A DNA stretch of 64,000 bases from Planctomycetota bacterium (GCA_947501605.1 CANMWZ010000003.1:96001-160000); one strand, 5' to 3'. Shown: positions 197 to 17,009, counted from the stretch's first letter. A program made the numbers and translations. Notes: generated from the sequence alone by a model not told the origin.

Positions 197-859
197 TCAG
201 CGGCGCAACACGGCGGCGAATGCGGCCACGACACCGGCAGCTGCTGCTTGTGGGTCGCGCGCCTGGGCAAACAGGGACATGACGGCTACGCCCACCGGGC
301 GTTGCTTCTGTGGCAGAGCCGCGATTTCGTCGGCGCCCGTAGCCTCGATACCGCCGAGCCAGACGACCGGCAGACTGGCCACGGCCGTCAGCGCAGCGGC
401 AGTGGCAACGCCGAGCGGCACGGATTGGGGCTTGGCCCGCACCGGCCAGATCGGCGACAGCAGCGCAAAGTCTGCGCCCGCCGCCACTGCCTCAGCCAGC
501 TCTGCCGCGTCGTGGGTGCTGACGCCCAGCACGCGGTCGTGCCCCAGCGCCCGCCTTGCCGCCAGCGGGCGCAGCGAATGATGCCCTACCTGAGCACCGT
601 CGAACGCCCCCGCCGCCGCACAGTCGACGCGATCATTGACCAAGAGCATGCCGTCGCACGACGCCAGGACCTGGCGGAGGCGCTCCCCAAGCTCGGCGAG
701 TTGGCGCGCCTTCAACAGCGGTTCGCGAACCTGCACGGTTCGCACACCCCCGCGCACTACCGCCTGCACCTGTGCTTCGATGCGAGCCTCATCGCCACGA
801 CCATCGGTGACGAAGACGACGCGCAAGACGGCTGGATCGAACGCGTGCGTCACACCCAC
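197..859 (-). CDS. thiE: Thiamine-phosphate synthase (ThiE/TenI family)
   Basis: VQVRE, LLVNDRVD, GAQVG, LGVSTH, ALLSPIW and WLGGI motifs of TMP synthase. Confidence 0.85.
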   Translation of the reverse strand: MGVTHAFDPAVLRVVFVTDGRGDEARIEAQVQAVVRGGVRTVQVREPLLKARQLAELGERLRQVLASCDGMLLVNDRVDCAAAGAFDGAQVGHHSLRPLAARRALGHDRVLGVSTHDAAELAEAVAAGADFALLSPIWPVRAKPQSVPLGVATAAALTAVASLPVVWLGGIEATGADEIAALPQKQRPVGVAVMSLFAQARDPQAAAAGVVAAFAAVLRR

Positions 860-1962
860 CCACGACGGCGAAACCAGCCCAACATCGCGAGCGCGATGGC
901 GAGCATGCCCCCCATTGCAATCGGGTAGCCAAAGCGCCAGTGCAGCTCCGGCATGTAGTCGAAGTTCATGCCATAGATGCCGACCATGAACGTCAGCGGG
1001 ATGAAGATCGTCGCGATCAGCGTCAGCACCTTCATCACCTCGTTCAGCCGGATGCTGGCAGAGGCGAGGTGCAACTCGGTCAAGCTGGCGCCGAGTTCGC
1101 GGTAGTTCTCGAGGAGGTCGAGCAACTGCACCACGTGGTCGTAAACGTCGCGGAGATAAACCCGCGTCTCCGCAGTCACCCGCTTGCTATCCCCGCGCAT
1201 CAGCGCCGACATCACTTCGCGAAGCGGCCAGAGGGCTCGTCGTACTTCGAGAAGTTCTCGGCGCACGCAGTGCAGATCCCGAACCACATCGCCTGGGGTA
1301 TTGCCCGCGATGATCAACTCTTCGACGGCCTCGAGGCGGTCGCCAAACGCTTCCAGCTCGGGGAAGTACGAGTCGACGATCGAATCCACCAAGGCATACG
1401 CCAAGTAGTCGATGCCGTTGCGCCGCAGGCGGGAGGTCTTGTCGCGCAAGCGATGGCGAACCGGATCGAACGAGTCGCCGCGATGCTCCTCGAAGGTCAA
1501 GATGAAGTCGTCGCCCAGGAACAGGCACAACTGCTCGGTCGCACCGGCGTGCGCCTCATCGAGTACGCGAAGGACGAGAAACTGGTGCTCCGGGTAGTCC
1601 TCGAGCTTTGGCCGCTGGTGCGTGTGCACGACGTCCTCGAGGGCCAAGCGGTGCAGCGAGAACAACTGGGCAACCTTCTTGAGCAACGCCAGATCGCCCA
1701 GACCGGCGACCGACACCCAGAGCAGACCACTCCGCCCACGAAGTTCGGCGACGCGCTCGATGGCGACACCCCGTTCCTCAATCACATCGCCTTCGGCGAT
1801 CCACGTGAGCGACAGGACTGGTACCGACGCCGAGGGATCGACGTGCAGGGTGCCCGGCGCCGCGCCGATCGCACCCCGCCGAGGCTTGCGCTCCCCAGAT
1901 TCTGCCGAGGCTTCCGCCGTCGGCGTTGGCTCGATTGCCCGACCTGGTTCGATAGACGACAT
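850..1962 (-). CDS. corA: Magnesium/cobalt transporter CorA
   Basis: LHRLALED, QRPKLE, YLRDVYDH, NEVMKVLT, GIYGMNF signature, MPEL, two C-terminal TM helices. Confidence 0.95.
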   Translation of the reverse strand: MSSIEPGRAIEPTPTAEASAESGERKPRRGAIGAAPGTLHVDPSASVPVLSLTWIAEGDVIEERGVAIERVAELRGRSGLLWVSVAGLGDLALLKKVAQLFSLHRLALEDVVHTHQRPKLEDYPEHQFLVLRVLDEAHAGATEQLCLFLGDDFILTFEEHRGDSFDPVRHRLRDKTSRLRRNGIDYLAYALVDSIVDSYFPELEAFGDRLEAVEELIIAGNTPGDVVRDLHCVRRELLEVRRALWPLREVMSALMRGDSKRVTAETRVYLRDVYDHVVQLLDLLENYRELGASLTELHLASASIRLNEVMKVLTLIATIFIPLTFMVGIYGMNFDYMPELHWRFGYPIAMGGMLAIALAMLGWFRRRGWV

Positions 1963-1983: not shown

Positions 1984-3876
1984 CTAACCGTGCCGCGCCC
2001 ACTCCTCCAGACTGTAGAGCACGTTCTGCGGGATTGGCGCTCGCGCACGGTCGTTCAGTTCGCGCACGATGTCCTCGAGAGTCAGTCCTTCAGCCAGACC
2101 CGCGCGCAGTGTGACCTGGTCCAGCTTGAACTGGTGCACATGGTCGCTCTTCTGCCGCTTGGCAAACCGATCGAATGCGTGAACCGCCTCATGCACGTCA
2201 TCACCGGGGAACATCAGGATCTCGAAGTCCGGATTGACCAGCACCGTGCTGCGCGTGCCGCCGGCCTTGGCCGCCGACTCGGCTTCGAGCAGATCCGCTC
2301 CGAGTTGCGACAAGCGCAACGCGACAGGCCGACCATCACGAAGGCCGATATCGACCAGCCCCAGAGGATAGAGCCGGCGCTTCACCCACAGCAGGAGGTT
2401 GCGGGCCATCTGCTGCAAGTTCTCGCTCGGCGCATAGGCCGCCCCTTGGCAGCGCGCAGCGAAGAACTCCTCCACTTGAGCGCCATCGAGTTGCGCGAGG
2501 TAGGCGTTGCGCGCGAGGAACGGCAAGCACGTCATCTCCTGCCACACCATCGGTTGGCCGCGACGCAGCAGACGCAACAGCACACGCCGCATGCGCACGT
2601 GGTGAAAGGACTCTCCAGGCAGCGATCGATCCTCGATGAAATGCTGGAGCAAGAGCTTCTGTTGGTCCGCTAGCGGGGCACGGTCGAACTCCATGCCTTG
2701 TGGCGTCGGTCGCAGCGCGCGCTCGCCGCGGCGGTCGATGAGTCGCCGGAACAGGCAGAACTTGTAGACCAGTTCGAGCTGCGCCTCGGGCTGGAGGAAC
2801 CCACCGGCGATCGGTAGCAGCGATCCAGCGATGCGCTTGTGACTCGCCTTGAACAGGTCGCCTTCGGCGGTGAACAGCACGGTGCTCTGGTGCAGTTCAC
2901 GCAGGAACCGTCCGACGTTGCTGGCCAGATTCGCACCGCACGAGAGCTCTTCCTGCACTTCCACTGCGTGCTTGTTCGCGTGCTTCAACAGTTCTTCGAG
3001 CACGACCTCGTGGAACAGCACGAACGCGTTCTCCATCGGCTGGATGCCAAGGCGCAGCAGCGGCAACGGCGCAACGGTTCCGAGCATCGACTCTTCGAGG
3101 CACTTGCGACACAACTCCGCATCGGGGACCTCGCCGTCGTCAAACTCGGCCGCGAGTTCCTCCCAACTCGACAGGCCGCCATGCTTCAACATCGAAACCT
3201 CGAAGGCGGCTGCAACTTCCTTCGGCAACTTGCCGCGGCGCGATGCGATTGCCGAGCCCATCGCGTAGAGCTTGTAGATCTTGCGGGCATGGTCCGCGGC
3301 CTTCTCGTCGGCGCCTTCGACCGGCTTGCCGTTCTTGCCGGCCTTGGTCGCCTTCTGGTTGCGCGCGCGGAAGTGCCGCGCATCCAAGAATCCCTGGAGC
3401 GTGATCAAGTCCTTGAGCGCACTGCGCGCGCGAGCCCGGTGGTCGATGACGCAACGAGCGAGTTCGGCGGGTACCGCGTAGCCCTGAGCCTGATAGTCGG
3501 TCCAACGTTTGTCGTTGGCCGGGAACAGCATGCCCTCGCGCTGCAGCGCCGCTAGGCACGCTTCGAGATCGAATCGACTCTTGAACGCTTGCCCCTGCGT
3601 CGAGAACAACTGCTGCACGGAGATCACCGAGCCTGGAGCCTGCAGAAACGGCTCGAGCAAATCCTGCAGCTTCCGCGGCAACTGCTGCAGACGCCGCAGC
3701 ACGGTGGCTTCGTCCTCCATCGCCGCTGACAGCGAGCCAACGAGCGCGGCTCGCGACGGCGACTTGCCACCGGCCGGCGCGCTTGCAGCGTCAGGACCGA
3801 GCCAAGCAATCACGGTTTCCCGCAACACATCGGCGGCGGCGTCGTGCAGCAAGGTTCGCAGGTCGAGCGACTTCAT
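1984..3876 (-). CDS. XPB-associated protein with C-terminal Helicase_C_3 (XPB N-terminal-like) domain
   Basis: C-terminus VLVNPDFEIL...FDRFA...HQFKL...IPQNVLYSLEEW parallels the XPB N-terminus. ATG at 3876 overlaps the XPB stop (ATGA). Confidence 0.8.
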   Translation of the reverse strand: MKSLDLRTLLHDAAADVLRETVIAWLGPDAASAPAGGKSPSRAALVGSLSAAMEDEATVLRRLQQLPRKLQDLLEPFLQAPGSVISVQQLFSTQGQAFKSRFDLEACLAALQREGMLFPANDKRWTDYQAQGYAVPAELARCVIDHRARARSALKDLITLQGFLDARHFRARNQKATKAGKNGKPVEGADEKAADHARKIYKLYAMGSAIASRRGKLPKEVAAAFEVSMLKHGGLSSWEELAAEFDDGEVPDAELCRKCLEESMLGTVAPLPLLRLGIQPMENAFVLFHEVVLEELLKHANKHAVEVQEELSCGANLASNVGRFLRELHQSTVLFTAEGDLFKASHKRIAGSLLPIAGGFLQPEAQLELVYKFCLFRRLIDRRGERALRPTPQGMEFDRAPLADQQKLLLQHFIEDRSLPGESFHHVRMRRVLLRLLRRGQPMVWQEMTCLPFLARNAYLAQLDGAQVEEFFAARCQGAAYAPSENLQQMARNLLLWVKRRLYPLGLVDIGLRDGRPVALRLSQLGADLLEAESAAKAGGTRSTVLVNPDFEILMFPGDDVHEAVHAFDRFAKRQKSDHVHQFKLDQVTLRAGLAEGLTLEDIVRELNDRARAPIPQNVLYSLEEWARHG

Positions 3877-5621
3877 CGCTTGGGATCCTCGTTGGCCTTG
3901 GCCATTCCGGTCGCCGCGCCGACCCCGCCCGCTGTAGCGCCCGCTGGCAGGAAGGTAGCGGCCTCGACGATCGCGTAGGCGTAGCCCTGTTCGGTCAAGA
4001 ACAGCTGCCGCTTCTGCGCGAACTCCTGTTCCCGTGTCGCAGGACTCACCAGCGCGTAGAAGCACGCCGTGCCGCCGTCCTCTTTAGGACGCAGGATGCG
4101 GCCCAGACGCTGGGCCTCTTCTTGGCGGCTTCCAAACGTGCCGGAGACCTCGATGGCGACGTTCGCATCGGGCAAGTCCACCGCGAAGTTGCCAACTTTG
4201 CTGACGACGAGCCTCTGGATCGAACCGGAGCGAAAGCCGGCGTAGAGCCGCTCACGCTCGACATTCGGAGTCTGGCCGGTGATCAACGGCAACTGGAACA
4301 CCGTGGCGAGTTGTTGCAGCTGCTGAAGGAACTGGCCGATCACGAGCACTCGATCGTTGGCGTGCTTGTGTAGCAGCGCCCCCACCACATCGAGCTTCCG
4401 CTCGTTCTCGCTGGCGATGCGGAACTGCTGGCGTGCGCCGGATCGTGCGTGGCGCTGGGCGCGCTCCGGGCCCAACGGGACCCGTACTTCGAAGCACTGA
4501 GCCGTGGCCAAGAAGCCCGCGCGCTCGAGCTGCTTCCACGGCACCTCGTAGCGTTTGGGCCCGATCAACGAGAACACCTCGTCTTGGCGGCCATCTTCGC
4601 GAACCAGAGTCGCGGTCAGGCCAAGTCGCCGCCGCGCTTGAATGCCTGCAGTCGCGCGAAACACCGGTGCCGGTAGCAGATGCACTTCGTCGTAGACGAT
4701 CAAACCGAAGCCGCCCTTGTCGAACACATCGAGATGAGTGAAGGCTGCAAGCTTGTCCTTGCGGTGCGTCAGGATCTGGTAGGTCGCGACAGTCACGGGT
4801 CGGATCGCCTTCTGCTCGCCGGTGTACTCGCCAACCTGGTCTTCACGCAGGTCGGTCTTGTCCAGGATCTCGCGCACCCACTGGCGCACGGCCACGGTAT
4901 TGGTCGTCAACACCAGGGTGTTGGTCTGAAGCAACTGCATCACGCCGATACCCACCACGGTCTTGCCACCACCGCACGGCAGCACCACCACGCCGCAGCC
5001 ACCGAGATCCGAGCCGCCGCGATGGAACGCCGCCGCGGCCGCCTGTTGGTAGCCCCGCAAGGCGAAGGCGTGGCCCTGTTGGGTTTCGCTGCGCAGCGCG
5101 AACGACAACGCGTCGCCGCTCACGTAGCCCGCGCGGTCGTCGACTGGATAGCCCAAGCGCACAAGCATCTGCTTGACCGCCCCCCGGTCTGCTTGCTGTA
5201 CCCGCAGGGTGCCATCGCGATGGTGTGCAACCAGCTTCTGCAGTTGGTCGTCGGCCGCAAGTTCGGCAAGCAAGTCCGCCTCGGCGCACGTCAATACGAG
5301 CTCGCCGCTGCCATCCTTGGCCGATTCGAGTTGCAGCAGGCCGTAGCGCCGGTGCCACTCGGTCAACTGCGCCAGTACCGGTCGCGCGATCGGGAAGCGC
5401 GAGTTCAAGATCAGCCAATCAACGATCGAGGCGAGCGTCTCGCCCAGTGCCGCCGCATTCCACACGCTGACTGCCGTGATCTTGTAGAAGTGGACGTACT
5501 CGGGCGACTTCTCCAGTTCGGCAAAGCGCTGGAGTCGATCGCGCGCCATCTCGTAGCCCGGGTGCTGCGTTTCCAACAGCACGGTGCGGTCCTGCTGCAC
5601 GATGAGGGGGGCTTCGGTCAC
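3873..5621 (-). CDS. DNA repair helicase XPB/Ssl2/Rad25 family
   Basis: N-terminal PLIVQQDRTVLLE..FAELEKSPEYVH; Q-motif LRGYQ; Walker A LPCGGGKT; DEVH; GLTAT; XPB-specific RED motif (LVREDG); QRLGRILR. Confidence 0.93.
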   Translation of the reverse strand: MTEAPLIVQQDRTVLLETQHPGYEMARDRLQRFAELEKSPEYVHFYKITAVSVWNAAALGETLASIVDWLILNSRFPIARPVLAQLTEWHRRYGLLQLESAKDGSGELVLTCAEADLLAELAADDQLQKLVAHHRDGTLRVQQADRGAVKQMLVRLGYPVDDRAGYVSGDALSFALRSETQQGHAFALRGYQQAAAAAFHRGGSDLGGCGVVVLPCGGGKTVVGIGVMQLLQTNTLVLTTNTVAVRQWVREILDKTDLREDQVGEYTGEQKAIRPVTVATYQILTHRKDKLAAFTHLDVFDKGGFGLIVYDEVHLLPAPVFRATAGIQARRRLGLTATLVREDGRQDEVFSLIGPKRYEVPWKQLERAGFLATAQCFEVRVPLGPERAQRHARSGARQQFRIASENERKLDVVGALLHKHANDRVLVIGQFLQQLQQLATVFQLPLITGQTPNVERERLYAGFRSGSIQRLVVSKVGNFAVDLPDANVAIEVSGTFGSRQEEAQRLGRILRPKEDGGTACFYALVSPATREQEFAQKRQLFLTEQGYAYAIVEAATFLPAGATAGGVGAATGMAKANEDPKR

Positions 5622-8600
5622 GACTCCTCCACTGTTGTCGTCTTGCGCTTCTTGCTGCGGTTGGCCGGAGTCGGCGCGTCCGCGACCTGTGCCAACCGGA
5701 GTTTCAAGAAACGGCCCGTGTGACTCTGCGGCAGTGCGGCGATGTCCTCCGGCGTCCCTTGTCCGACAACAGAGCCGCCCAGATTGCCGCCTTCAGGACC
5801 CAGCTCGATCACGTGGTCGGCCGCGGCGATGACATCGAGGTGGTGCTCCACCACGATCACCGAATCGCCACGTTCGAGGAGTCGCTGCAGCACCCCCAAG
5901 AGCTTCTGCACGTCGTCCATGTGCAAGCCCGTCGTCGGCTCGTCGAGCACGTAGACCATGTGTTCGCGCGGAGTGCGAGCCAACTCGGCGACCAACTTGA
6001 GTCGCTGCGCTTCGCCGCCAGAGAGTGTATTGGCCGGTTGCCCGAGCTTCAGGTAGCCGAGACCGACGTCCGCGAGCAACGTCAACGACCGTGAGATACG
6101 TGGATGATTGCCGAAGAACTGCAGCGCTTCGTCGACCTCCATGGCCAGCACCTGCGCGATGTTCTTGTTGCGGTACTCGACCGCCAGCGTCTCTTGGTTG
6201 TAGCGCTTGCCACGGCACATCTCGCAAGTCACCCAGACGTCCGCGAGAAAGTGCATCTCGACCTGAATGTGGCCCTTGCCCTCACACGTACCGCAGCGAC
6301 CGTCAGCGACGTGGAACGAGAAGCGGCCTGGACCGAATCCCTTTTGCTTGCTCAGCGGGACCTGCGCGAACAGCTCGCGGATGGGACCGAAGATCTCGGT
6401 GTAGGTTGCGGGGTTGGACGACGGCGTGCTACCGAGCGCAGCCTGGTCGACGACGGCGAGTCGACACTCGTGTTCTTCGCCATCCGCCCAAACCAGGTCG
6501 GCGGTGCCGTCGCGAAGCTGCGGCACGAGCGCATCGAGCACCAGCGAAGACTTGCCGGAGCCCGAAACTCCCGTGACCGCCGTCATCACCCCGAGCGGAA
6601 CATCGACGTCGACGGCCTTCAGGTTGTGCACGGCGATGCCGCGTAGTTGCAGATGGCCCGAGGGCACCCGTCGTTCGCGAGCCTGGGGCAACCCTAGAAC
6701 ACCGCGCAGATATCGACCCGTCAGGCCATCGCTCTGCGCCACCTCGAGCGGAGTCCCGCACGCCACCACCGTGCCGCCGCGCGAGCCGGCGCCCGGGCCA
6801 AGGTCGAGCACGTAATCGGCAGCGCGGATCACCGACTCGTCGTGTTCCACCGCAATAACGGTGTTGCCGAGGTCGCGCAGTTCGAGCAGCGTCGCCAGCA
6901 ACCGCTCGGTGTCGCGCGGGTGCAGACCCACCGTCGGTTCATCGAGCACGTACAGCACGCCCATCAGCTTGTTGCCGAGCTGGGTTGCGAGGCGGATGCG
7001 CTGCGCTTCGCCGCCGGACAACGTCGCCGCCGAACGATCCAGCGTCAGGTAGCCCAGACCCACTTCGTGCAAGAACGACAGTCGATTGCGCAGCTCCTTG
7101 TGGATCTCCGCCGCGATCCGCGCGTCTTTCGGATCGAGCTTCCAGTTGTGCAGCAAGCGCAGAGCCTCCTCCACCGTCGACGCACAGACTTCGGGCATGC
7201 GAACGCCGCCGACTCGGACCGCGCGCTGCGCCTCGCCCAAGCGCTCGCCATGGCAGGAGGGACAGGAGCCGACGCGCATCACGTCGCGGAAACGCTCGTC
7301 ACCGCCCGACTGTTCGTCCTTGCCGTGGTACCACTCCTCGACCTGGCGAGCGAGGCCCTTCCACTTGACCTGCATGCGCCACGTGCGCGACTTGCCGGCC
7401 TCGCGCTTCTTGAAAACGATCTCGAACTTCTCTTCACCGAGCCCACGCATCAACCACTGGCGGTCTTGCGGTGCGAGCTTGTTCCATGGCGTTGACAAGT
7501 CGACTCCGCGTTGCTCGGCGACGACGCGAGCCACATCGGCGTAGTAGCCGCTCCCCGTAGTCAGGAACGTGAAGGCCGCCCCCTTGTGCTTGATGGCGCC
7601 GCCAAAGACCGGCTTGTCCGGACGATTGACCAAGAGCGACTCGTCGCAAACCACGACCTCACCAAGCCCGGCGCACTGCGCACATGCACCCGTGTGGTGA
7701 TTGAACGAGAACCAACGCGGGTGTGGCTGTTCGTGGCCGAGGAAGCCGCACTGCGGGCAACTGCGATTCTCGCTGTAGACCGCCCGGGCACCGGCATCCT
7801 CACCACCCACCACTTGCGCGATGACAAGACCGTGACCTCCGTGAGCGTGAGCGGCCCGCACGCACTGCTCGGCGCCATCGACGACGCGAACACGATCGTC
7901 GAACGACACGCGATCGACGACGAGGAACAGCTCCTTTGGTGAGTTCTTGGGCCAAGCGGCATCAAGGCGGAGCTCGGCGCCATCGAAGAGCACGCGAATG
8001 AAGCCTTGTTCCTGCCATTCCGCGCGCAGCGCCCCGAAGTACGACGCGGCCTTCACCAGCGACTCGTCGCTGTCGCTGCCAAACTCTTGCGGCACGGCGA
8101 CCTGAGCCAACAGGTAGCCCCGGCGCCCCTTCCACTTCTTGCCAACATCCTGGGCAATTCGACTTGGCGACCAAGCCACCAGTTCTTGCCCGTGCGCGGG
8201 GCAGTGCGGACGGCCGATGCGCGCGTAGAGCAGACGAAGGTAGTCGTGGATCTCCGTCGTCGTCGCCACGGTCGAACGCGGACTGCGGACACCGTGCTTC
8301 TGATCGATCGCGATCGCCGGCCCGAGTCCATCCAGCACATCCACGGGCGCGCGGTCCATGCGCCCGAGAAATCGACGAGCATAGGTAGACATGCTCTCCA
8401 AGAACCGGCGCTGGCCCTCTTGGAACAGCGTGTCGAACGCCAGACTCGACTTGCCAGAGCCAGAGGGTCCGGTCACGACCGTGAACCGATCGAGCGGCAA
8501 CTGGCAGTCGATGCCTTTCAAGTTGTGAGTGCGAGCACCACGAACAGTGATGTGTGTGGGCCGCACCGTGCGCTGCGGCACGGCGGCCTTGGCCTTCTTC

Positions 8601-11521
8601 GCCGCCAAGGTGCTGGATCGGGTCTCGTTCGACGAGTTCTTCCTGGGCGCAAACATCGCTCGCAGGGCGCGGCCGGTGTGAGAGGCCTCGACTTCCATCA
8701 CCTGCTCGGGCGTTCCGGTCGCTACGACCGTGCCACCACCGGCGCCACCTTCCGGACCAAGGTCGACGATCCAGTCGGCGGCGCGAACGACGTCGAGGTT
8801 GTGTTCGATCACCAGCAGGGAGTTGCCGGCATCGCACAACCTCTGCATGCAAAGCAACAGCTGACCGATGTCGTGAAAATGCAGGCCGGTCGTCGGCTCA
8901 TCGAGCACGTAGAGAGTCTTGCCCGTAGCCGGCCGCTGCAGTTCGGTCGCAAGCTTCACGCGCTGGGCCTCGCCGCCAGACAGCGTCGTCGATGGCTGCC
9001 CGAGCTTCAGGTAGCCAAGCCCCACGTCCTGCAGCGCCCGTAGCGCCCGCGCGATCTTTGGTAGTTCGGAAAACAGCGTGAGGGCTTCGTCGACGGTCAT
9101 CTCGAGGACGTCGTGAACACTCTTCTCCTTGAATCGGATCTCCAGAGTCTCGGGATGGAAGCGGGCCCCAGAACACTGCTCACAAACCACCTCGACCGGC
9201 GCGAGGAAGTTCATCTCCAAGGTCTGAACCCCAGCACCCTCACAGGCCTCGCAACGACCACCGGCGACGTTGAAGCTGAACCGGCCCTTCTCGTACTGAC
9301 GCAGCCTGGCTTCTGGCAACTGCGCGTAGAGGTCGCGAATGTGGGTCCAGACATCCGTGTAAGTCGCTGGGTTGCTCCGCGGCGTGCGGCCGATTGGTGA
9401 CTGGTCGATCTCGACCAACTTGTCGATCTGCTCGACGCCGGTTACGCGCTTGCAGCGAGCACTCTTGGGCGGCTCGCCGCTGAGCACGGCAGCCACCCAC
9501 GGCTTCAGCACGTGATGCACGAGCGTCGATTTGCCCGAGCCGGAGACACCCGTGATGGCAACGAAGCGACCGAGCGGGAGATCCACGTCGAGACCGCGCA
9601 GATTGTGAAAGCGCGCACCCTCGATGCGGAGATGCCCCTTGTCCTCGCCGCGGCGCTCCTTGGGCATCGGCACCGTCAACTCGCCGCGCAGGTACTTGCC
9701 GGTCAGCGAGTTTTCGTTCGCCTCGACTTCTGCCGGCGTTCCGGCGGCAACCACCTCGCCGCCACCGGCGCCAGCGCCCGGACCGATGTCGACGAGCCAA
9801 TCGCTCTTGCGCATCGTGTCTTCATCGTGTTCGACGACGACCAGCGTGTTGCCGCGATCGCGCAGCGCCAAGAGCGTGCGCAAGAGGCGGTCTTGATCGC
9901 GCGAGTGCAGACCGATCGACGGCTCGTCGAGTACATAGAGAATGCCACGAAGCCCGGCACCGACCTGCGCTGCGAGCCGAATGCGCTGCGACTCGCCACC
10001 CGAGAGCGTGCGGGCCGGGCGAGACAGCGTCAGGTAGCCAAGGCCCACTTCTTCGAGGAAGACGAGTCGTCGCTCGATCTCGCGCACGATCTCACGGCCG
10101 ATCTCGAGATCGTTGCCGGCAAGTCGCACGGCTCGGATCCACAGTAGCGCCTGCTCCACCGGCAACCCCGACACCTCGGGCAGGCTGCTTTCTTGGAACA
10201 TCACCGCCCGCGCCGCCGCGCACAGCCGGTCGCCATCGCAATCGGGGCACTTCACTGCCGCGCGGTAGCGGTCGAGATGCCGCGCCCGCGACGGACGGTA
10301 GACGCGTTCGAGGTGACCAAGGATGCCCGGGAACGCAATGCGATCCATACCGGACGACTCGAACGTCGCCGAGCGCCGCTGCCAGCGGAACTCGAACGTC
10401 TTGGTCCCGCTGCCGTGCAACACGACCTTCCTTGCCTTCGCCGTCAGCCTTTGCCACGGCGTGTCGACGTCGAAGCCGAAGGCATCGCCGACCGTTTGGA
10501 GGTGCGCCATCGTCAGCGTGCTGTAGACCAGCTTGCCTTCGTCGGTGAACACCGACAAGGCACCCTCGCGCAGCGACTTGCTGGCGTCGGCTAGGAGCAG
10601 AGCCTCGTCGAATCCGTAGATTTCGCCGAGCCCTTCGCACCGCTGGCACATGCCAATCGGGCTGTTGAACGAGAACAGGCGGGGCTCCATCTCCGGCAAG
10701 CCGCCGTGACCGTCTGGACAACTCCGCTTCGCCGAGAACACGCGGTAGCCGGCGTCCTCCCACGCGAGCGCGCAGGTGCTGTCGCCGAGCGCCAGCGCTT
10801 GCTCGACGGCTTCGGCAAGACGCGAGCGCGTTTCCGTGGCCACGGTGAGTCGGTCGACCACGAGTTCGATCGTGTGGTAGACGTAGCGCTCGAGCACGAT
10901 GTCCTCGTCGAGGCGCCGCACGACCCCGTCGATCCGCGCGCGTACAAAGCCCTTGCTGCGCCATTCGACGAGCTCCTTGCGGTACTCGCCCTTGCGCTCG
11001 CGAACCACCGGCGCGAGGACCATCACAGCAGTGCCTCGGTGATCGACAATCATCGCCTCGACGATGCGATCCGGCGACCAGGCCTCGATCTTGGCACCGC
11101 ACTCGGGACAGCTCGGAGTGCCAAGGCGCGACCACAGCAAGCGCAGGAAGTCACTTACCTCGGTGAGCGTCCCGACGGTGCTGCGCACACTGTGACTGGT
11201 CGACTTCTGGTCGATGGAGACCGTCGGCGAGAGGCCCTCGATGAGGTCGACCTTGGGCTTCTCCATGCGCCCCAGAAACTGCCGCGCATACGAACTCAGA
11301 CTCTCCAGGAAGCGACGCTGGCCTTCCTGATAAATCGTGTGGTAGGCGAGGCTCGACTTGCCGGAGCCCGACACGCCCGTGAAGGTCGACAGTGCATCGC
11401 GCGGGAACGTCAGATCGACGCCCTTCAGGTTGTGCTCCCGAGCCCCTTTGACCACTACATAGCCACGGTCTGGACGGGGCACCGCAGGCGCGTCGGGGGT
11501 CGATTTGGACTTCGGTCGCAC
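5618..11521 (-). CDS. uvrA: Excinuclease ABC subunit A, double-length (two fused UvrA units, about 1970 aa)
   Basis: Four Walker A (GVSGSGKS x3, GPSGSGKS), four LSGGE signatures, four LDEP Walker B, duplicated Zn-finger CxxC sets and FSFN motifs. GTG start at 11521 chosen because TAGGAT lies upstream; the ORF extends to 11563. Confidence 0.95.
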   Translation of the reverse strand: MRPKSKSTPDAPAVPRPDRGYVVVKGAREHNLKGVDLTFPRDALSTFTGVSGSGKSSLAYHTIYQEGQRRFLESLSSYARQFLGRMEKPKVDLIEGLSPTVSIDQKSTSHSVRSTVGTLTEVSDFLRLLWSRLGTPSCPECGAKIEAWSPDRIVEAMIVDHRGTAVMVLAPVVRERKGEYRKELVEWRSKGFVRARIDGVVRRLDEDIVLERYVYHTIELVVDRLTVATETRSRLAEAVEQALALGDSTCALAWEDAGYRVFSAKRSCPDGHGGLPEMEPRLFSFNSPIGMCQRCEGLGEIYGFDEALLLADASKSLREGALSVFTDEGKLVYSTLTMAHLQTVGDAFGFDVDTPWQRLTAKARKVVLHGSGTKTFEFRWQRRSATFESSGMDRIAFPGILGHLERVYRPSRARHLDRYRAAVKCPDCDGDRLCAAARAVMFQESSLPEVSGLPVEQALLWIRAVRLAGNDLEIGREIVREIERRLVFLEEVGLGYLTLSRPARTLSGGESQRIRLAAQVGAGLRGILYVLDEPSIGLHSRDQDRLLRTLLALRDRGNTLVVVEHDEDTMRKSDWLVDIGPGAGAGGGEVVAAGTPAEVEANENSLTGKYLRGELTVPMPKERRGEDKGHLRIEGARFHNLRGLDVDLPLGRFVAITGVSGSGKSTLVHHVLKPWVAAVLSGEPPKSARCKRVTGVEQIDKLVEIDQSPIGRTPRSNPATYTDVWTHIRDLYAQLPEARLRQYEKGRFSFNVAGGRCEACEGAGVQTLEMNFLAPVEVVCEQCSGARFHPETLEIRFKEKSVHDVLEMTVDEALTLFSELPKIARALRALQDVGLGYLKLGQPSTTLSGGEAQRVKLATELQRPATGKTLYVLDEPTTGLHFHDIGQLLLCMQRLCDAGNSLLVIEHNLDVVRAADWIVDLGPEGGAGGGTVVATGTPEQVMEVEASHTGRALRAMFAPRKNSSNETRSSTLAAKKAKAAVPQRTVRPTHITVRGARTHNLKGIDCQLPLDRFTVVTGPSGSGKSSLAFDTLFQEGQRRFLESMSTYARRFLGRMDRAPVDVLDGLGPAIAIDQKHGVRSPRSTVATTTEIHDYLRLLYARIGRPHCPAHGQELVAWSPSRIAQDVGKKWKGRRGYLLAQVAVPQEFGSDSDESLVKAASYFGALRAEWQEQGFIRVLFDGAELRLDAAWPKNSPKELFLVVDRVSFDDRVRVVDGAEQCVRAAHAHGGHGLVIAQVVGGEDAGARAVYSENRSCPQCGFLGHEQPHPRWFSFNHHTGACAQCAGLGEVVVCDESLLVNRPDKPVFGGAIKHKGAAFTFLTTGSGYYADVARVVAEQRGVDLSTPWNKLAPQDRQWLMRGLGEEKFEIVFKKREAGKSRTWRMQVKWKGLARQVEEWYHGKDEQSGGDERFRDVMRVGSCPSCHGERLGEAQRAVRVGGVRMPEVCASTVEEALRLLHNWKLDPKDARIAAEIHKELRNRLSFLHEVGLGYLTLDRSAATLSGGEAQRIRLATQLGNKLMGVLYVLDEPTVGLHPRDTERLLATLLELRDLGNTVIAVEHDESVIRAADYVLDLGPGAGSRGGTVVACGTPLEVAQSDGLTGRYLRGVLGLPQARERRVPSGHLQLRGIAVHNLKAVDVDVPLGVMTAVTGVSGSGKSSLVLDALVPQLRDGTADLVWADGEEHECRLAVVDQAALGSTPSSNPATYTEIFGPIRELFAQVPLSKQKGFGPGRFSFHVADGRCGTCEGKGHIQVEMHFLADVWVTCEMCRGKRYNQETLAVEYRNKNIAQVLAMEVDEALQFFGNHPRISRSLTLLADVGLGYLKLGQPANTLSGGEAQRLKLVAELARTPREHMVYVLDEPTTGLHMDDVQKLLGVLQRLLERGDSVIVVEHHLDVIAAADHVIELGPEGGNLGGSVVGQGTPEDIAALPQSHTGRFLKLRLAQVADAPTPANRSKKRKTTTVEES

Positions 11522-11616
11522 GGTTTGAAACCTGCTGATCCTAGCAGTGGGTCCGACCGGCACCAGCGGGACAGACGGAAGTCTCCTGCCCCTCTCCGGG
11601 GTAGGCTCCGCGCCCC

Positions 11617-11958
11617 ATGACCGACCCCGAAGCCGACGACGACGCCCCGCTCCACCTTGAACACGACCTGTTGATCCGAATGCGCCTGTCGAACCGAGCG
11701 CTCGGCGTGAACGCCGAACGGGTTGCCATCGAAGAGCTAGCCGACCAGTTGGAGGCAGCGGTGCTCGAGGCCGGGGTCGGCGAGTACGACGGCGACGAGT
11801 TCGGTGGCGGAACCTGCGTGTTGTTCTTCGCTGGTGCCGACGCGGACAAGCTCCTGGCAGCGATGACTCCGCTGCTCAAGAGGCACCCGATGGGGCGATC
11901 GGCCACCGTCACGATCCAACGTGGGAGCGATGCCGCTCCCGAAGACGTCAAGTTCTGA
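11617..11958 (+). CDS. Small acidic hypothetical protein
   Basis: 113-aa ORF with natural composition (GEYDGDEFGGG..LFFAG.DADKL), divergent from uvrA, TAGGCT 9 nt upstream of the ATG. Confidence 0.7.
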   Translation: MTDPEADDDAPLHLEHDLLIRMRLSNRALGVNAERVAIEELADQLEAAVLEAGVGEYDGDEFGGGTCVLFFAGADADKLLAAMTPLLKRHPMGRSATVTIQRGSDAAPEDVKF

Positions 11959-11991
11959 TCGCTGCCAGCGGCGGCGGCCGCTGCAACCTGC

Positions 11992-13497
11992 TCAGTTGCC
12001 GAGCAGAACGTCGACCATGTTGCTGCCAACAAGACCAAGGGTCGTGGTCGCAGATGGCGAGAACCCGAAGTACTGGAAGTACAGGTGCTGACCGACGAGG
12101 CCTGGATCGTTGGGCATGGTGTAGCTCCGCCCGGCGACGCCAAAGGTGCTGACGATCGACTCGGTGTAGTCGAGCGACACGCGCAAAAGGCAGCCCTCAA
12201 CGCCGAGTGGCGTCATGTCCACTGGCAGCGACGCCCCACTCCACGTCGTCGACGACAGCCCGATCGCGAACCAACCCAACTGCGGCGTCGCGGCATGCAA
12301 GTTGGTGGCAATCACCGACATCGGCATCGCGATCTCGGGCAGACCGCTGACCAACAGCGTCGGCACTTGTAGACCGCCACAGCCAGCGCCGACTGCGGTG
12401 ATCGAACCGATCGTGTGCAAGGCCAAGGCTTGCAGACGCGCAGCAGTGAAGTCTGCACGCAGTGCGTCGGTGCCAGAGTTTCCCCCACTCGTCGCACTGC
12501 AACCACCGTGCGTGTGTACGCCGATCATCTGTCCCGTTGACTCCAGCAGCACTGCCGACCCGGAGTTGCCGCCAGTGGTGTCGGTGTCATAACGCAGCGC
12601 GGTGGCGGTGGCCGTCGACTGACGGTTGCCGAAGTGCGTCTTCTGCACTTGGTTCCAGGTGGACGACCCGCTGGTGCCATTTCCGGTGCCATAGCCAGTC
12701 ACCCGGATCTGCTGCCCCGCAACCAGCGGCGGCGCCGGGACAATCGAGTACCAACTTCCCTGTGCCTGCCCGGGATAGAGCTGCGTGTTGCTGTTGCGCA
12801 CCGCACTCATCGTCGCCCAGTCCGCCCCAACGCCGCCGTTCAAGCTCTGCAAGAACGTGGACAACGCGTACTGGTCGTTGGGATGCGAGGGCACCGGTGT
12901 GCCACTGGCGGTCGAAAGCGGCACGTTGAAGTGCAAGATCTTGCCCGCCGTGCCAGACGTCATGCAGTGCCCAGCCGTCCCGGCCGCAAACGCCGAGAAC
13001 AGCCACGCGGAACAGCTCGCGTTGAGCCTTCCTGAGCGCGGATCGTTCGAGAGCACCCGATCGTCCGTCGTGCCGCAGATCGTGTCGACGTCGACCACTG
13101 TGCCCACATCAAGGACCGCCACCGAATCGATGCGCGCCCGGTTACCGGTGGTGGCGGCACCGGCAACGAGCTCGATGCGCAAGGTCGGCCCCACGAATTG
13201 GCACGAGTAGCAGCCGTAGTCAGCAATCGAGCGGGCGTCATGCCACTGCACCCAGTCAGGTCGTACGGGGGCGTAGATCTTGAGCTGCGAACCGGGAGGC
13301 AGGTTCACATCGGCAAAGTGCAACTGCAGCCAATCGCCGGCCACCGTGACGTCCGTGGTCCAGAGCACGCGCGGCGCCGGGTCCAGATTGCTCACCAGCC
13401 CCGAATCGCGGTTCATCGCCACGGTGCGAAGCGGCGACAAGGCCTCCTGGCAGAGAGCGCTCGCGACCAACGACAAGGCCACAACGAGATGGTGCAT
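11992..13497 (-). CDS. Secreted trypsin-like (S1) serine protease with N-terminal pro-domain and C-terminal beta-rich domain
   Basis: Signal peptide MHHLVVALSLVASALC; catalytic TAGHC, GADWA, GGNSGS; mature region starts ICGTTDDR. Confidence 0.85.
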   Translation of the reverse strand: MHHLVVALSLVASALCQEALSPLRTVAMNRDSGLVSNLDPAPRVLWTTDVTVAGDWLQLHFADVNLPPGSQLKIYAPVRPDWVQWHDARSIADYGCYSCQFVGPTLRIELVAGAATTGNRARIDSVAVLDVGTVVDVDTICGTTDDRVLSNDPRSGRLNASCSAWLFSAFAAGTAGHCMTSGTAGKILHFNVPLSTASGTPVPSHPNDQYALSTFLQSLNGGVGADWATMSAVRNSNTQLYPGQAQGSWYSIVPAPPLVAGQQIRVTGYGTGNGTSGSSTWNQVQKTHFGNRQSTATATALRYDTDTTGGNSGSAVLLESTGQMIGVHTHGGCSATSGGNSGTDALRADFTAARLQALALHTIGSITAVGAGCGGLQVPTLLVSGLPEIAMPMSVIATNLHAATPQLGWFAIGLSSTTWSGASLPVDMTPLGVEGCLLRVSLDYTESIVSTFGVAGRSYTMPNDPGLVGQHLYFQYFGFSPSATTTLGLVGSNMVDVLLGN

Positions 13498-13639
13498 GGC
13501 GCCAAGGCTACCGGACTCCGCCACCGCCGTCACCCTTGTCGGCAGCCCTACGTCCGCCCGAGCGGATTCAAGCGATGGTGTCGCGCCGATCGATACGCGG
13601 TGAAGCGTGCCGTCGCACGCACCACCACGGACCCACACG

Positions 13640-14656
13640 ATGTCGCGCATTGCCCTCCTGATCGCCGCCCTCCTGCTCGCTAGTTGCGGCCTGTTCCGCA
13701 CCGACGACAGAGCTTCCACCACCCCATTGCCCAGCCCCATGGTGGAGACCGCGCCAAAGGCGCAGGTCAGGATCCCCTATGCGCTCGCGCGCTGCATCGT
13801 CAGCGGCAAGATGCTTCTCGAAGACGCGGTGACGTTCGTGGTCGACGGCCGCACGTTCCGCACCTGTTGCCCGAAGTGCCAGCAGACGATCGAAGAGGAC
13901 CCGGAACTCTGGGGCCATCAGGTCGATGCCGCCACGATCGCCGACCAACTTCGCGACTACCCCCTGGGCACGTGCCTCGTCTCGGGCAAGCCGCTGCCCG
14001 AGTCCGCCGTCTCAGCCCTTTGCGGCTCGACTCTCGTGCGCCTCTGCTGCACCGGCTGCAAAGCCCGCTTTGAAGCCGAGCCGACGCACTATCTCGCGCG
14101 CCTCGACACTGCGAAGTGCGTCAGCTACGGCACGGCCACCATCAACACGACGAACTGGACGCCCAAGCAGACGACCCAGTGGATCCAGGATCAGTTGCCG
14201 GACTACCCGCTCACCAATTGTCCGATCTCGGGCAAGCCGATCGATGAGAGTGGCGCCCCCTACGACATCCTGCTCGACGGTACGCTGGTTCGACTGTGTT
14301 CTGAGAAATGCGCCACCAAGGCCGAAGCTCGCGCTGCGGAGATCGCCACGGCGGTGCAGAGCGCGGCCTTCGCCCAGCAGAAGGCCGAGTATCCGTCGAG
14401 CCAGTGCGCGGTATCGGGCAAACCGCTTGGTGACCGCGCCAGCTCGACCATGCTTGGCACGACTCTCGTACGGACCTGCACGTCCTCGTGCATGAGTCAC
14501 CTCGTCGACAATCGTTCGGCACTCGTCGCGACCTTGCGCGCGGCGCGCATCGAAGCCAGAGTCGCCACCAAGCAGAATTGCTGCAACACCGGTGGCACTT
14601 GCTGCTGCGCAAGCGAGGACTCAGCGCCTGCCTCGGACGGCAGCACCGGCAAGTAG
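13640..14656 (+). CDS. Lipoprotein with four TRASH/YHS-like Cys metal-binding repeats
   Basis: Lipobox LASC; four repeats Y(P)xxxCx(V/I)SGK...R(T/L)CxxxC; Cys-rich tail CCNTGGTCCC. Confidence 0.75.
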   Translation: MSRIALLIAALLLASCGLFRTDDRASTTPLPSPMVETAPKAQVRIPYALARCIVSGKMLLEDAVTFVVDGRTFRTCCPKCQQTIEEDPELWGHQVDAATIADQLRDYPLGTCLVSGKPLPESAVSALCGSTLVRLCCTGCKARFEAEPTHYLARLDTAKCVSYGTATINTTNWTPKQTTQWIQDQLPDYPLTNCPISGKPIDESGAPYDILLDGTLVRLCSEKCATKAEARAAEIATAVQSAAFAQQKAEYPSSQCAVSGKPLGDRASSTMLGTTLVRTCTSSCMSHLVDNRSALVATLRAARIEARVATKQNCCNTGGTCCCASEDSAPASDGSTGK

Positions 14657-14788: not shown

Positions 14789-15619
14789 TTACGGCAGGAA
14801 GCGGCGGACGTCGTCGTGGAGGATGGCATTGCTGGCCAGAATCCGCCCGCCATAGAGCCAGGCGTCGCCGCCGTCGATGTCGGTGACCCGCCCCCCCGCT
14901 TCGCGGACCACGATCGCGCCAGCGGCGACGTCATACGGGGCCAGATCGAACTCCCAGTAGGCGTCGTAGGCCCCGCGCGCGACGAAGCAGAGGTCGAGTT
15001 CCGCCGATCCAAATCGGCGCACATCGCGGCAGTGCGGCATCACCCGTCGCAGGCGCTCGATGTTGTCCACCGCGCCCTGCTCATCGCGACGATAGGCAAA
15101 GCCCGTGGCGAGGAGCGCGTCGGCGAGCTCGCTGGTCGACGACACCCGCAACGGTGTGCCGTTGCAGGTCGCGCCGAGACCAAGAGCGGCTGAGTAGGTC
15201 TGCTGTAGGACGGGCGCATGCACGACACCCACCACTGGCACCGACCGGTAGGCGAGCCCGATCGCAACCGCGAAGAACGGGAGTCCGTGCACAAAGTTGG
15301 TCGTGCCGTCGAGTGGATCGACGATCCACGTCCAGTCCGACTGGCTGCTCTTCTGACCTTGGACCGTGAGCACGCCCTCTTCGGCGAGGACGGCGTGGTC
15401 TGGATACTGCTGCAGCAAGCCGCCGACGACCACACGTTCGGTTTCGCGGTCGGCCTCGGTCACCAGTTCGCGGCGGAAACTCTTCGACCGGGCGCTGCCG
15501 CGCGCTGCCTGCAAGCGCAGCAGCACTTCGCCCCCTTGGATCGCGAGCGCGCTAGCTCGGGCGCGCCACTCGGCAAGCTGCTCTGCCGTGGCCGGCACCG
15601 CGATCGTCCGATCACCCAT
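14789..15619 (-). CDS. suhB: Inositol monophosphatase family protein
   Basis: LVTEAD, AEE, WIVDPLDGTTNF, RRFGSAELDL, PYDVAAG. Confidence 0.9.
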   Translation of the reverse strand: MGDRTIAVPATAEQLAEWRARASALAIQGGEVLLRLQAARGSARSKSFRRELVTEADRETERVVVGGLLQQYPDHAVLAEEGVLTVQGQKSSQSDWTWIVDPLDGTTNFVHGLPFFAVAIGLAYRSVPVVGVVHAPVLQQTYSAALGLGATCNGTPLRVSSTSELADALLATGFAYRRDEQGAVDNIERLRRVMPHCRDVRRFGSAELDLCFVARGAYDAYWEFDLAPYDVAAGAIVVREAGGRVTDIDGGDAWLYGGRILASNAILHDDVRRFLP

Positions 15620-17009
15620 CCGAGGCGCCTCGATCGAGCGCCTCGACGATGCGTTCCTGCAGCGTCTTCAGCATCCTGTTGACGCCGTCCTTGCGCGGGT
15701 CGTAGTTCATCAAGATCGCGAACGCGCAACGCGAACCGTCCTTGCGCTGGAGAATGCCCGACAGCGACGAAGCGCCGCGGATCCAGCCGGTCTTGGCTTG
15801 CACGCGGCCGCGCACTGGGCTGTTCTGGAAGCGACCCGACAGCGTGCCGGTCTCGCCGCCGACCGGCAGAGCCGCGAGGAACATGTCGGCGTCGCGCGAG
15901 GCGACGATCTCGCGCAACGCCGTGACCAAGAGCCGCGGCGTCACTTCGTTGCCGCGCGACAAGCCGCTGCCGTCAATCTGAACCAAGGCCTCACCGGCGC
16001 CCCCGAACTTGCCATCGAGCGTCGCACGCACGGCGGCGAGGCCACCTTGGAGACTGCCATCGCCACTCAGTTCGGCACCTAGCACGCGCACCAGTTGTTC
16101 CGCGTCGAAGTTGCTCGATTCCTCCAGCATCCTCACCAAGGCAGGCTGTAGCGGCGTGCGATGCCTGTAGAGCTCCGGAACATCGATCGCGGCAGCGTCT
16201 GCCGTCACGCGAATGCCGCCTTGCGCGAGCGCCTGGAGCACGCCGCGCTCGAACCACGGCAACGGATCGCGCACCGCCGTCTGGGTGACGACCTGGGTCG
16301 AACCCTTCCACATCTTGCCCTGCACGCGCAAGCGGTCACCAAGATCCATCGCCCCATAGACCGCCCCCTTCTTGGCCGCGACCACCGCGATGCTGCCGTC
16401 CACCGGCATGTCGAGGAAGGGAGCGACCAGGAGTGCCTCGGCAGTGGCTCCCGCGGGGCGGACCTGCAGCCGAAACGTCCCTTGCTCGAGCACGAAGCCG
16501 CCGGTCGGAGCGCAGTAGTAGGTGTCGAGCTGGTCCTGTGGCCAGGTCGCCGGCCGCCCGGGACCTGTGAAGACGCCTTGCTGCAGTTCGACCGCGCGCA
16601 CGCTGCGAACACCGCGCTGGATCAGTGCCGAGACCAGCCCTCGCCACAGCGCTTCGGGCCCGTGCTCGGTGCCGGTGATGAGGTTCGGGTCGCCGCCAGC
16701 GTGGACGACGAGCCGGCCCTGGCGCAACTCGAAGCGCGTGCCGAACTCGTAGCTGTGGCCGAGGCCATGCAACACGGCGGCGGCGCTCAGCAGCTTCATG
16801 TTGCTGGCCGGCACGAAGCGCTCGTCCTGACGATGGCGATAGCGCCACGTGCCGTCGATCTCGATCGCGGCAACGCCAGTACGAACCCCCTGGCCCTCGG
16901 CCTCCGCAACGGCGGCCGACATCAGCGCCGCGCTGCGTTGCGCGATCGCCGTCGCAGCACATGCCCAGAGCACAACCGCAGTCATGCGAACGTAGCAGCA
17001 GCCACCCAT
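15612..17009 (-). CDS. dacB: D-alanyl-D-alanine carboxypeptidase/endopeptidase (PBP4, peptidase S13)
   Basis: PASNMKL (SxxK), GGDP, SSN, DGSGLSR, KTG motifs; signal peptide. Start may be 16985. Confidence 0.9.
   Translation of the reverse strand: MGGCCYVRMTAVVLWACAATAIAQRSAALMSAAVAEAEGQGVRTGVAAIEIDGTWRYRHRQDERFVPASNMKLLSAAAVLHGLGHSYEFGTRFELRQGRLVVHAGGDPNLITGTEHGPEALWRGLVSALIQRGVRSVRAVELQQGVFTGPGRPATWPQDQLDTYYCAPTGGFVLEQGTFRLQVRPAGATAEALLVAPFLDMPVDGSIAVVAAKKGAVYGAMDLGDRLRVQGKMWKGSTQVVTQTAVRDPLPWFERGVLQALAQGGIRVTADAAAIDVPELYRHRTPLQPALVRMLEESSNFDAEQLVRVLGAELSGDGSLQGGLAAVRATLDGKFGGAGEALVQIDGSGLSRGNEVTPRLLVTALREIVASRDADMFLAALPVGGETGTLSGRFQNSPVRGRVQAKTGWIRGASSLSGILQRKDGSRCAFAILMNYDPRKDGVNRMLKTLQERIVEALDRGASDG

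Follow-up and report, generated by a model that had tools for sequence, protein, structure and literature searches.

The locus studied here raises the question of whether a bacterial UvrA hands DNA lesions to an XPB helicase instead of to UvrB, or whether two independent machineries merely share an operon. In the window, by which we mean the whole 64,000-nucleotide stretch of Planctomycetota DNA that was analysed, a double-length uvrA gene is followed by xpb and by a gene for a partner protein (Table 1). The original prediction held that the three genes are joined by 4-nt GTGA and ATGA overlaps and that the UvrA is a single-chain dimer, and both statements are borne out: the overlaps can be read in the sequence, and the TIGR00630 model has two matches in a single frame, which together hold four sets of Walker A, signature and Walker B motifs. 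From this arrangement, and from the absence of uvrB and uvrC in the window, it proposed that UvrA passes lesions to XPB and its partner in a hybrid excision-repair system. Reading of the uvrA ORF offers three candidate starts, at 11563, at a GTG at 11521 (1967 aa) and at 11482. No sigma70-like promoter or terminator was found at 11400-12100.

Table 1. Positions of the genes and domains discussed, counted from the first nucleotide of the window.
Feature	Position	Strand	Remarks
Double-length UvrA (single-chain dimer)	5618-11563	minus	1981 aa; TIGR00630 twice, 2280 bits
UvrA half 1	8651-11461	minus	aa 35-971; both ABC motif sets intact; UvrB-binding domain; insertion domain of 120 aa
UvrA half 2	5699-8557	minus	about aa 1003-1955; both ABC motif sets intact; UvrB-binding domain; insertion domain of 127 aa
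UvrB-binding domain 1	10766-11077	minus	Pfam UvrA_inter, aa 163-266
UvrB-binding domain 2	7754-8191	minus	about aa 1125-1270; below Pfam pass, found by aligning to half 1
GTGA overlap, uvrA stop / xpb start	5618-5621	minus	Sequence read; -4 overlap in most related loci too
Bacterial XPB helicase/translocase	3873-5621	minus	582 aa; NF045503, SF2 motifs
ATGA overlap, xpb stop / partner start	3873-3876	minus	Sequence read; -4 overlap mostly in related loci
p52/Tfb2-like partner	1984-3876	minus	630 aa; tandem winged-helix domains, clutch domain last (predicted model)
Partner clutch domain	1987-2259	minus	aa 540-630; copy of XPB N-terminal fold (predicted model)
thiE	197-859	minus	Ancestral-block member
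corA	850-1962		Inserted between partner and thiE
dacB-suhB	14789-17009	minus	Upstream ancestral-block members
Acidic protein	11617-11958	plus	113 aa, without family match; between suhB and uvrA
Trypsin-like protease	11992-13740	minus	Between suhB and uvrA
Probable lipoprotein	13607-14656	plus	349 aa, repeated cysteine motifs, without Pfam match; between suhB and uvrA

The two halves of the window UvrA are 46% identical to each other in alignment, all four ABC ATPase motif sets are intact, and the insertion domains are matched by Pfam UvrA_DNA-bind in two stretches. Against NF001885/PRK00635, the curated long-UvrA model of 1809 positions, the protein scores 1300.8 bits, under the curated cut-off of 3054; long UvrAs of this type are what we take the chlamydial 'class IV' label to denote. 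The window protein likewise comprises two full UvrA units with all ATPase motifs and with UvrB-binding and insertion domains, but its halves lie nearer to canonical UvrA and its gene stands upstream of xpb.

Positions of the UvrB interface were mapped on to the window protein through PDB 2r6f, E. coli numbering being assumed equal to that of G. stearothermophilus. Residues R176, D205, R206 and D219, which we presume to belong to this interface, have equivalents in both halves of the window UvrA in the alignment. The same holds for R216 and E222, which the available text of PMC3025350 names as UvrB surface. Loss of the canonical UvrB-binding surface is therefore not seen in either half, an outcome that on its own terms counts against the original prediction, and the candidate idea of a degenerate site in half 2, where Pfam UvrA_inter gives a single stretch for the whole protein, was ruled out by the same alignment. 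Retention is general among XPB-linked UvrAs: the set R176/D205/R206/D219 is kept in both halves of all 30 proteins outside the family that we call f9 and of 15 of 18 within it, and outside f9 R216 is kept in both halves of 30/30 and an acidic residue stands at position 222 in one half of 25/30 and in the other half of 23/30.

Profile searches of the genome, which is 91% complete, identified the window uvrA as the sole uvrA, no second copy being found, and placed the only full-length uvrB match and the only uvrC match next to each other on contig C2 (C2:215802-217820 and C2:214014-215753, respectively). The original prediction was thus correct that uvrB and uvrC are missing from the window, which lies on contig C3, but their apparent absence from the genome is a window effect, and no extra uvrA is present to serve ordinary repair. 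The genome also encodes mfd, lexA, recA and a DinG-type helicase domain; with its uvrB, uvrC and mfd it resembles a UvrABC system built around a double-length UvrA. Of the 151 genomes of the class, 149 have uvrB, 149 have uvrC, 150 have mfd and 144 have XPB. Double-length UvrA occurs in about 19 of 30 hand-picked Planctomycetota genomes outside the class, two of these without an XPB match.

The helicase itself is readily classified. The window XPB scores 810.5 bits against NF045503 (cut-off 610), the same helicase family as the XPB/ERCC3 of Actinobacteria, and has a Helicase_C_3 N-terminal domain (aa 6-133), Walker A (aa 214), a DEVH box (aa 311), a RED motif near aa 341 and motif VI (aa 504). 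The partner, the identity of which the original prediction left open, has a single Pfam match, again to Helicase_C_3 (aa 545-628), and its C-terminus aligns with the XPB N-terminus at an hhalign probability of 99%. When its AlphaFold2 model (pLDDT 86.8) was submitted to Foldseek, ranks 1-20 were all p52/Tfb2 (best E 4e-7), at low global TM-scores of 0.20-0.31 and identities of 9-17%, winged helices being a common fold. In an independent wide structure search with the same protein, the best match was the XPB N-terminal domain (Z 14.5, rmsd 1.9, 91 residues aligned, XPB 71-163), with p52 next (Z 11.3, rmsd 11.4, 227 aligned); the match to 6tru_B has Z 10.3 and rmsd 3.6 over 154 residues. The model of a relative's partner (pLDDT 92.8) gave a best Foldseek E of 1.7e-9, to p52, and its residues 173-605 are colinear with p52 27-399 (6nmi_D; Z 13.9, 310 aligned, with an rmsd of 17.6 that is high globally). 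Pfam Tfb2 (PF03849) gave no match to the window partner at E 1e-5 and was matched below its cut-off by 4 of 17 relatives (best E 1.1e-5). On these predicted models the partner looks like the TFIIH subunit p52/Tfb2.

The resemblance to TFIIH extends to how the pair is laid out. As in XPB-p52 (Ssl2-Tfb2; PDB 8EBS, 7O4I, 6NMI and 6TRS), the bacterial XPB has an N-terminal domain and a RED motif, and in the predicted models the partner has winged helices followed, in p52 order, by a clutch of XPB N-terminal fold. In TFIIH, according to the accessible sections of PMC6422496, the p52 clutch shares the fold of the XPB N-terminal domain and binds that domain as a pseudo-symmetric dimer. The bacterial unit differs in consisting of two genes, no p8, p44, p34 or p62 being among the genes seen in the block, and in having a partner with about 170 extra N-terminal residues that include a further winged helix. 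It also differs at the other end, where p52 carries a p8-binding domain: the window partner and its closest relatives stop right after the clutch, most others carry about 60 more residues, and in the alignment rows listed for one relative these extra residues match XPB 72-292, which includes the next XPB domain, and not the p52 C-terminus. Archaeal XPB is likewise encoded with a dedicated partner, Bax1, as described in the part of PMC13024598 available to us; Bax1 is a nuclease, whereas the window partner matches p52 and no nuclease is among its listed fold matches.

The partner is not confined to the phylum. A search with its profile yields 2625 representatives at E ≤1e-10, and its neighbours in the Atlas belong to Chloroflexota, Spirochaetota and Myxococcota. 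In Synergistaceae-titled loci (L137-L145) the partner is upstream of xpb, not downstream. Proteins combining Helicase_C_3 with a WYL domain have been catalogued (PMC6789036, in the text accessible); in one related partner from Planctomycetota a WYL domain stands at the C-terminus (L253:6650-8695), whereas Pfam finds no WYL match in the window partner. A 2012 study states, in its available text, that homologues of p52 had not been found in bacteria (PMC3353954), and we found no report of a bacterial p52 homologue or of a uvrA-xpb operon in the literature covered, in which few subscription journals are represented.

The gene order was compared across 57 hand-picked loci, comprising 53 from the taxonomic order to which the window belongs, three from outside it and the window itself; a second, partner-less XPB copy in genome G043 was left out. 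In this set uvrA lies directly before xpb in 53 loci and is separated from it in four, the partner directly follows xpb in 56, and the junctions are mostly -4 overlaps. Elsewhere in the phylum uvrA is next to xpb in 13 of 40 loci, from eight families, and in 3 of the 24 top-scoring loci with enough flanking sequence; at least ten families outside the order keep the junction. Of 30 loci that bear titles from outside Planctomycetota and have 1.3 kb or more of upstream sequence, none has uvrA adjacent and 22 have the partner near XPB. The closest relatives of the window XPB are mostly titled Planctomycetota. The adjacency is thus not confined to the window genome, so that this possible ground for refuting the original prediction falls away, and on sequence comparison the order uvrA-xpb-partner is old. 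One short Paceibacteria-titled locus also has the uvrA-xpb link; it scores like a member of the order and is probably mislabelled.

These three genes belong to a larger ancestral block, dacB-suhB-uvrA-xpb-partner-thiE-thiL-tsaE, the functions of which are mixed. Of 54 scored loci, 42 have the partner adjacent to thiE and 7 more have it nearby; suhB is adjacent to uvrA in 27 of 49. With f9 set aside, the uvrA-xpb junction is kept in 34/38 loci, against 24/36 for partner-thiE and 9/31 for suhB-uvrA, and of the 13 uvrA-xpb loci beyond the order five have thiE after the partner and eight have none. In four of the 40 phylum loci suhB stands directly before xpb. That the uvrA-xpb junction survives beyond the outer junctions suggests some selection for co-location or co-expression, and selection for co-expression of uvrA and xpb is, from gene order, plausible. 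In the window itself the block is interrupted twice, by corA, an insertion that marks the window's sub-lineage of family f1, and by three genes between suhB and uvrA (11617-14656).

The overlaps, real as they are, weigh less than the original prediction implied. By a rough in-house gene caller, 591 of the 2326 co-directional neighbour pairs in the window genome (25%) can overlap by 4 nt, which rules out the overlaps as a sign of a dedicated complex. No LexA-type box common to the upstream regions of uvrA, uvrB, recA, lexA and mfd was evident. Over the region, contigs from four metatranscriptome runs give flat coverage, unrelated genes included, so that DNA carry-over is possible, and no listed contig bridges a gene junction by 31 bases.

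In 5 of 6 relatives that have no XPB, uvrA runs directly into thiE with all of its motifs intact, and the partner was absent from all nine XPB-less genomes searched (73-96% complete). On a quick IQ-TREE tree of UvrA half 1 (50 rows, SH-aLRT support only; truncated sequences, two from f1, were omitted, as were one of single length from f4 and 10 of the 18 from f9) the losses of xpb plus partner fall in at least three places, and the UvrA branch lengths are ordinary. By these comparisons xpb and partner have been deleted together at least three times with UvrA unchanged. This repeated clean loss argues against an obligate link between UvrA and XPB, and obligate co-occurrence is further contradicted by the four of 57 loci in which the two genes stand apart. 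Pairwise distances correlate most strongly between xpb and partner (r=0.86), and less so between uvrA and xpb (r=0.66) and uvrA and partner (r=0.61), kin not being independent. On sequence comparison, the robust unit is XPB plus partner. At one locus (L040, G015:C11) xpb is shortened internally and the partner survives only as a remnant, beside an intact uvrA; loss of the cassette is apparently in progress there. At another (L019, G043:C9) a second full-length XPB has neither partner nor uvrA nearby.

We consider it probable that the locus holds two separable modules within one old operon, a housekeeping UvrA that works with UvrB and a dispensable accessory made up of XPB and its p52-like partner. 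The single-chain UvrA dimer would act as the housekeeping damage sensor and load UvrB, with UvrC cutting and Mfd coupling repair to transcription; we infer this activity from motifs, interface residues and gene content. XPB and its partner would most likely associate as a heterodimer of the eukaryotic XPB-p52 kind, in which the partner clutch would pair with the XPB N-terminal domain and switch on ATP-driven DNA translocation, while the winged helices might anchor the pair on DNA or on another protein. What the data show is fold similarity, co-occurrence and co-loss, from which we deduce such binding and activation. The pair would most likely remodel stalled transcription complexes or branched DNA, although the substrate is a guess. 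The two modules would have stayed together mainly because the gene order of a block of mixed functions was inherited, perhaps with some benefit from co-expressing DNA-maintenance genes, and not through UvrA handing lesions to XPB.

It is unlikely, in our judgement, that the XPB-p52-like pair is a transcription factor with a TFIIH-like part in promoter opening or escape, not a DNA-maintenance enzyme, and that its adjacency to uvrA is pure gene-order inertia. The mixed functions of the block and the want of a shared LexA-like box upstream agree with such a role, but bacterial RNA polymerase opens sigma70-type promoters without an ATPase and has no need of one there. XPB-p52 does drive promoter opening in eukaryotes, as stated in the accessible part of PMC13024598. 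The available text of PMC10534295 describes a Mycobacterium tuberculosis ercc3 mutant that was 2.6-fold more sensitive to rifampin under starvation, and also mentions a CRISPRi screen that showed no rifampin effect. The WYL domain of some partners, on the account given in the portion of PMC6789036 at hand, points rather to sensing of nucleic-acid damage.

Another alternative leaves UvrB in place and gives XPB an auxiliary role, the XPB-p52-like motor aiding UvrA-UvrB much as Mfd does: it would open or track along DNA and deliver UvrA, which could then load UvrB without a lesion search of its own. Besides the junction retained in at least ten families outside the order, more often than the outer junctions, what speaks for this is the fate of the UvrA insertion domain, which XPB-linked UvrAs have repeatedly dropped while keeping their UvrB sites. 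It is missing from the linked UvrAs of families f2, f5, f26 and f9 and from half 1 in f8. The insertion domain is less important when a translocase, Mfd, loads UvrA (PMC3025350, in the passages available), and XPB could be such a loader. Four of these families (f2, f5, f8 and f26) have a second, unlinked UvrA. Of 25 f9 genomes, 24 have no UvrA match other than the linked copy, a protein of about 1320 aa from which the insertion domains are missing and in which the half 1 signature is altered (LSLGE); its half 2 keeps its zinc sites (L013, L014, L184-L199) and its UvrB site but has no full Walker A/B set in 18/18 proteins.

Several observations speak against this role. Family f9 retains uvrB, uvrC and mfd, so that an f9 without UvrB or Mfd is ruled out, and Mfd, present in all 25 f9 genomes, accounts for the same pattern. 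UvrA halves that have no insertion domain are also found where there is no linkage to XPB and in XPB-less genomes (G180, G184, G461, G462), which weakens the loss as an XPB-specific feature. Nor do the rates of XPB and partner track the degeneration of UvrA: identity to f1 is 27-57% for UvrA half 1 and 56-61% for XPB. What does track UvrA are UvrB and UvrC: f9 has the lowest UvrB and UvrC scores among full-length matches, which is not true of its XPB scores, and f9 UvrB has family-specific changes in its UvrA-binding domain 2, which is 41-42% identical to that of other families, these sharing 53-59% among themselves (L213-L219). With the clean, repeated loss of xpb and partner added, we regard an auxiliary coupling role as distinctly unlikely. 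As a separate observation, in f5 and f8 the additional UvrA, unlinked to xpb, is a double protein with a half 2 that has lost the UvrB-binding residues (2/2), and one gene of the split UvrA pair of f2 shows the same loss (L041, L042, L043); this suggests asymmetric dimers that bind one UvrB.

To the hybrid excision system of the original prediction, in which the double UvrA would pass lesions to XPB and its partner instead of to UvrB, we assign next to no probability despite the tight, conserved and overlapping three-gene arrangement, since both UvrA halves keep their UvrB residues, uvrB and uvrC are in the genome (and each in 149 of 151 genomes of the class), no second uvrA was found beside the one in the window, the block has no nuclease gene, and UvrA is unchanged once xpb is lost.

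With the preferred reading of two modules, the helicase pair becomes the interesting part of the locus, and the link to uvrA is less telling than it appears; conserved, overlapping DNA-repair neighbours can, as a caution, owe their position to an inherited order of genes. Family f9, with its reduced sole UvrA, offers a natural experiment on how little of UvrA is needed to load UvrB. Should the long shot come true that in Planctomycetota a TFIIH-like XPB-p52 motor is a second coupling factor for UvrABC, guiding the single-chain UvrA to load UvrB, it would explain the shedding of insertion domains by XPB-linked UvrAs in five lineages and the loss of all ATPase motifs from half 2 in one family, and would describe a bacterial pathway that unites UvrABC with the core of eukaryotic excision repair. 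A 2026 review, in its available text, still called the role of bacterial XPB elusive (PMC13024598), and purified bacterial XPB unwound DNA only with a large excess of enzyme, according to the accessible portion of PMC3353954. The co-encoded p52-like protein, of a kind that our models predict for bacteria and that we did not find in print, is the obvious candidate for the missing XPB activator and makes the function of bacterial XPB a testable question. Such a partner would put the XPB-p52 core of TFIIH outside eukaryotes.
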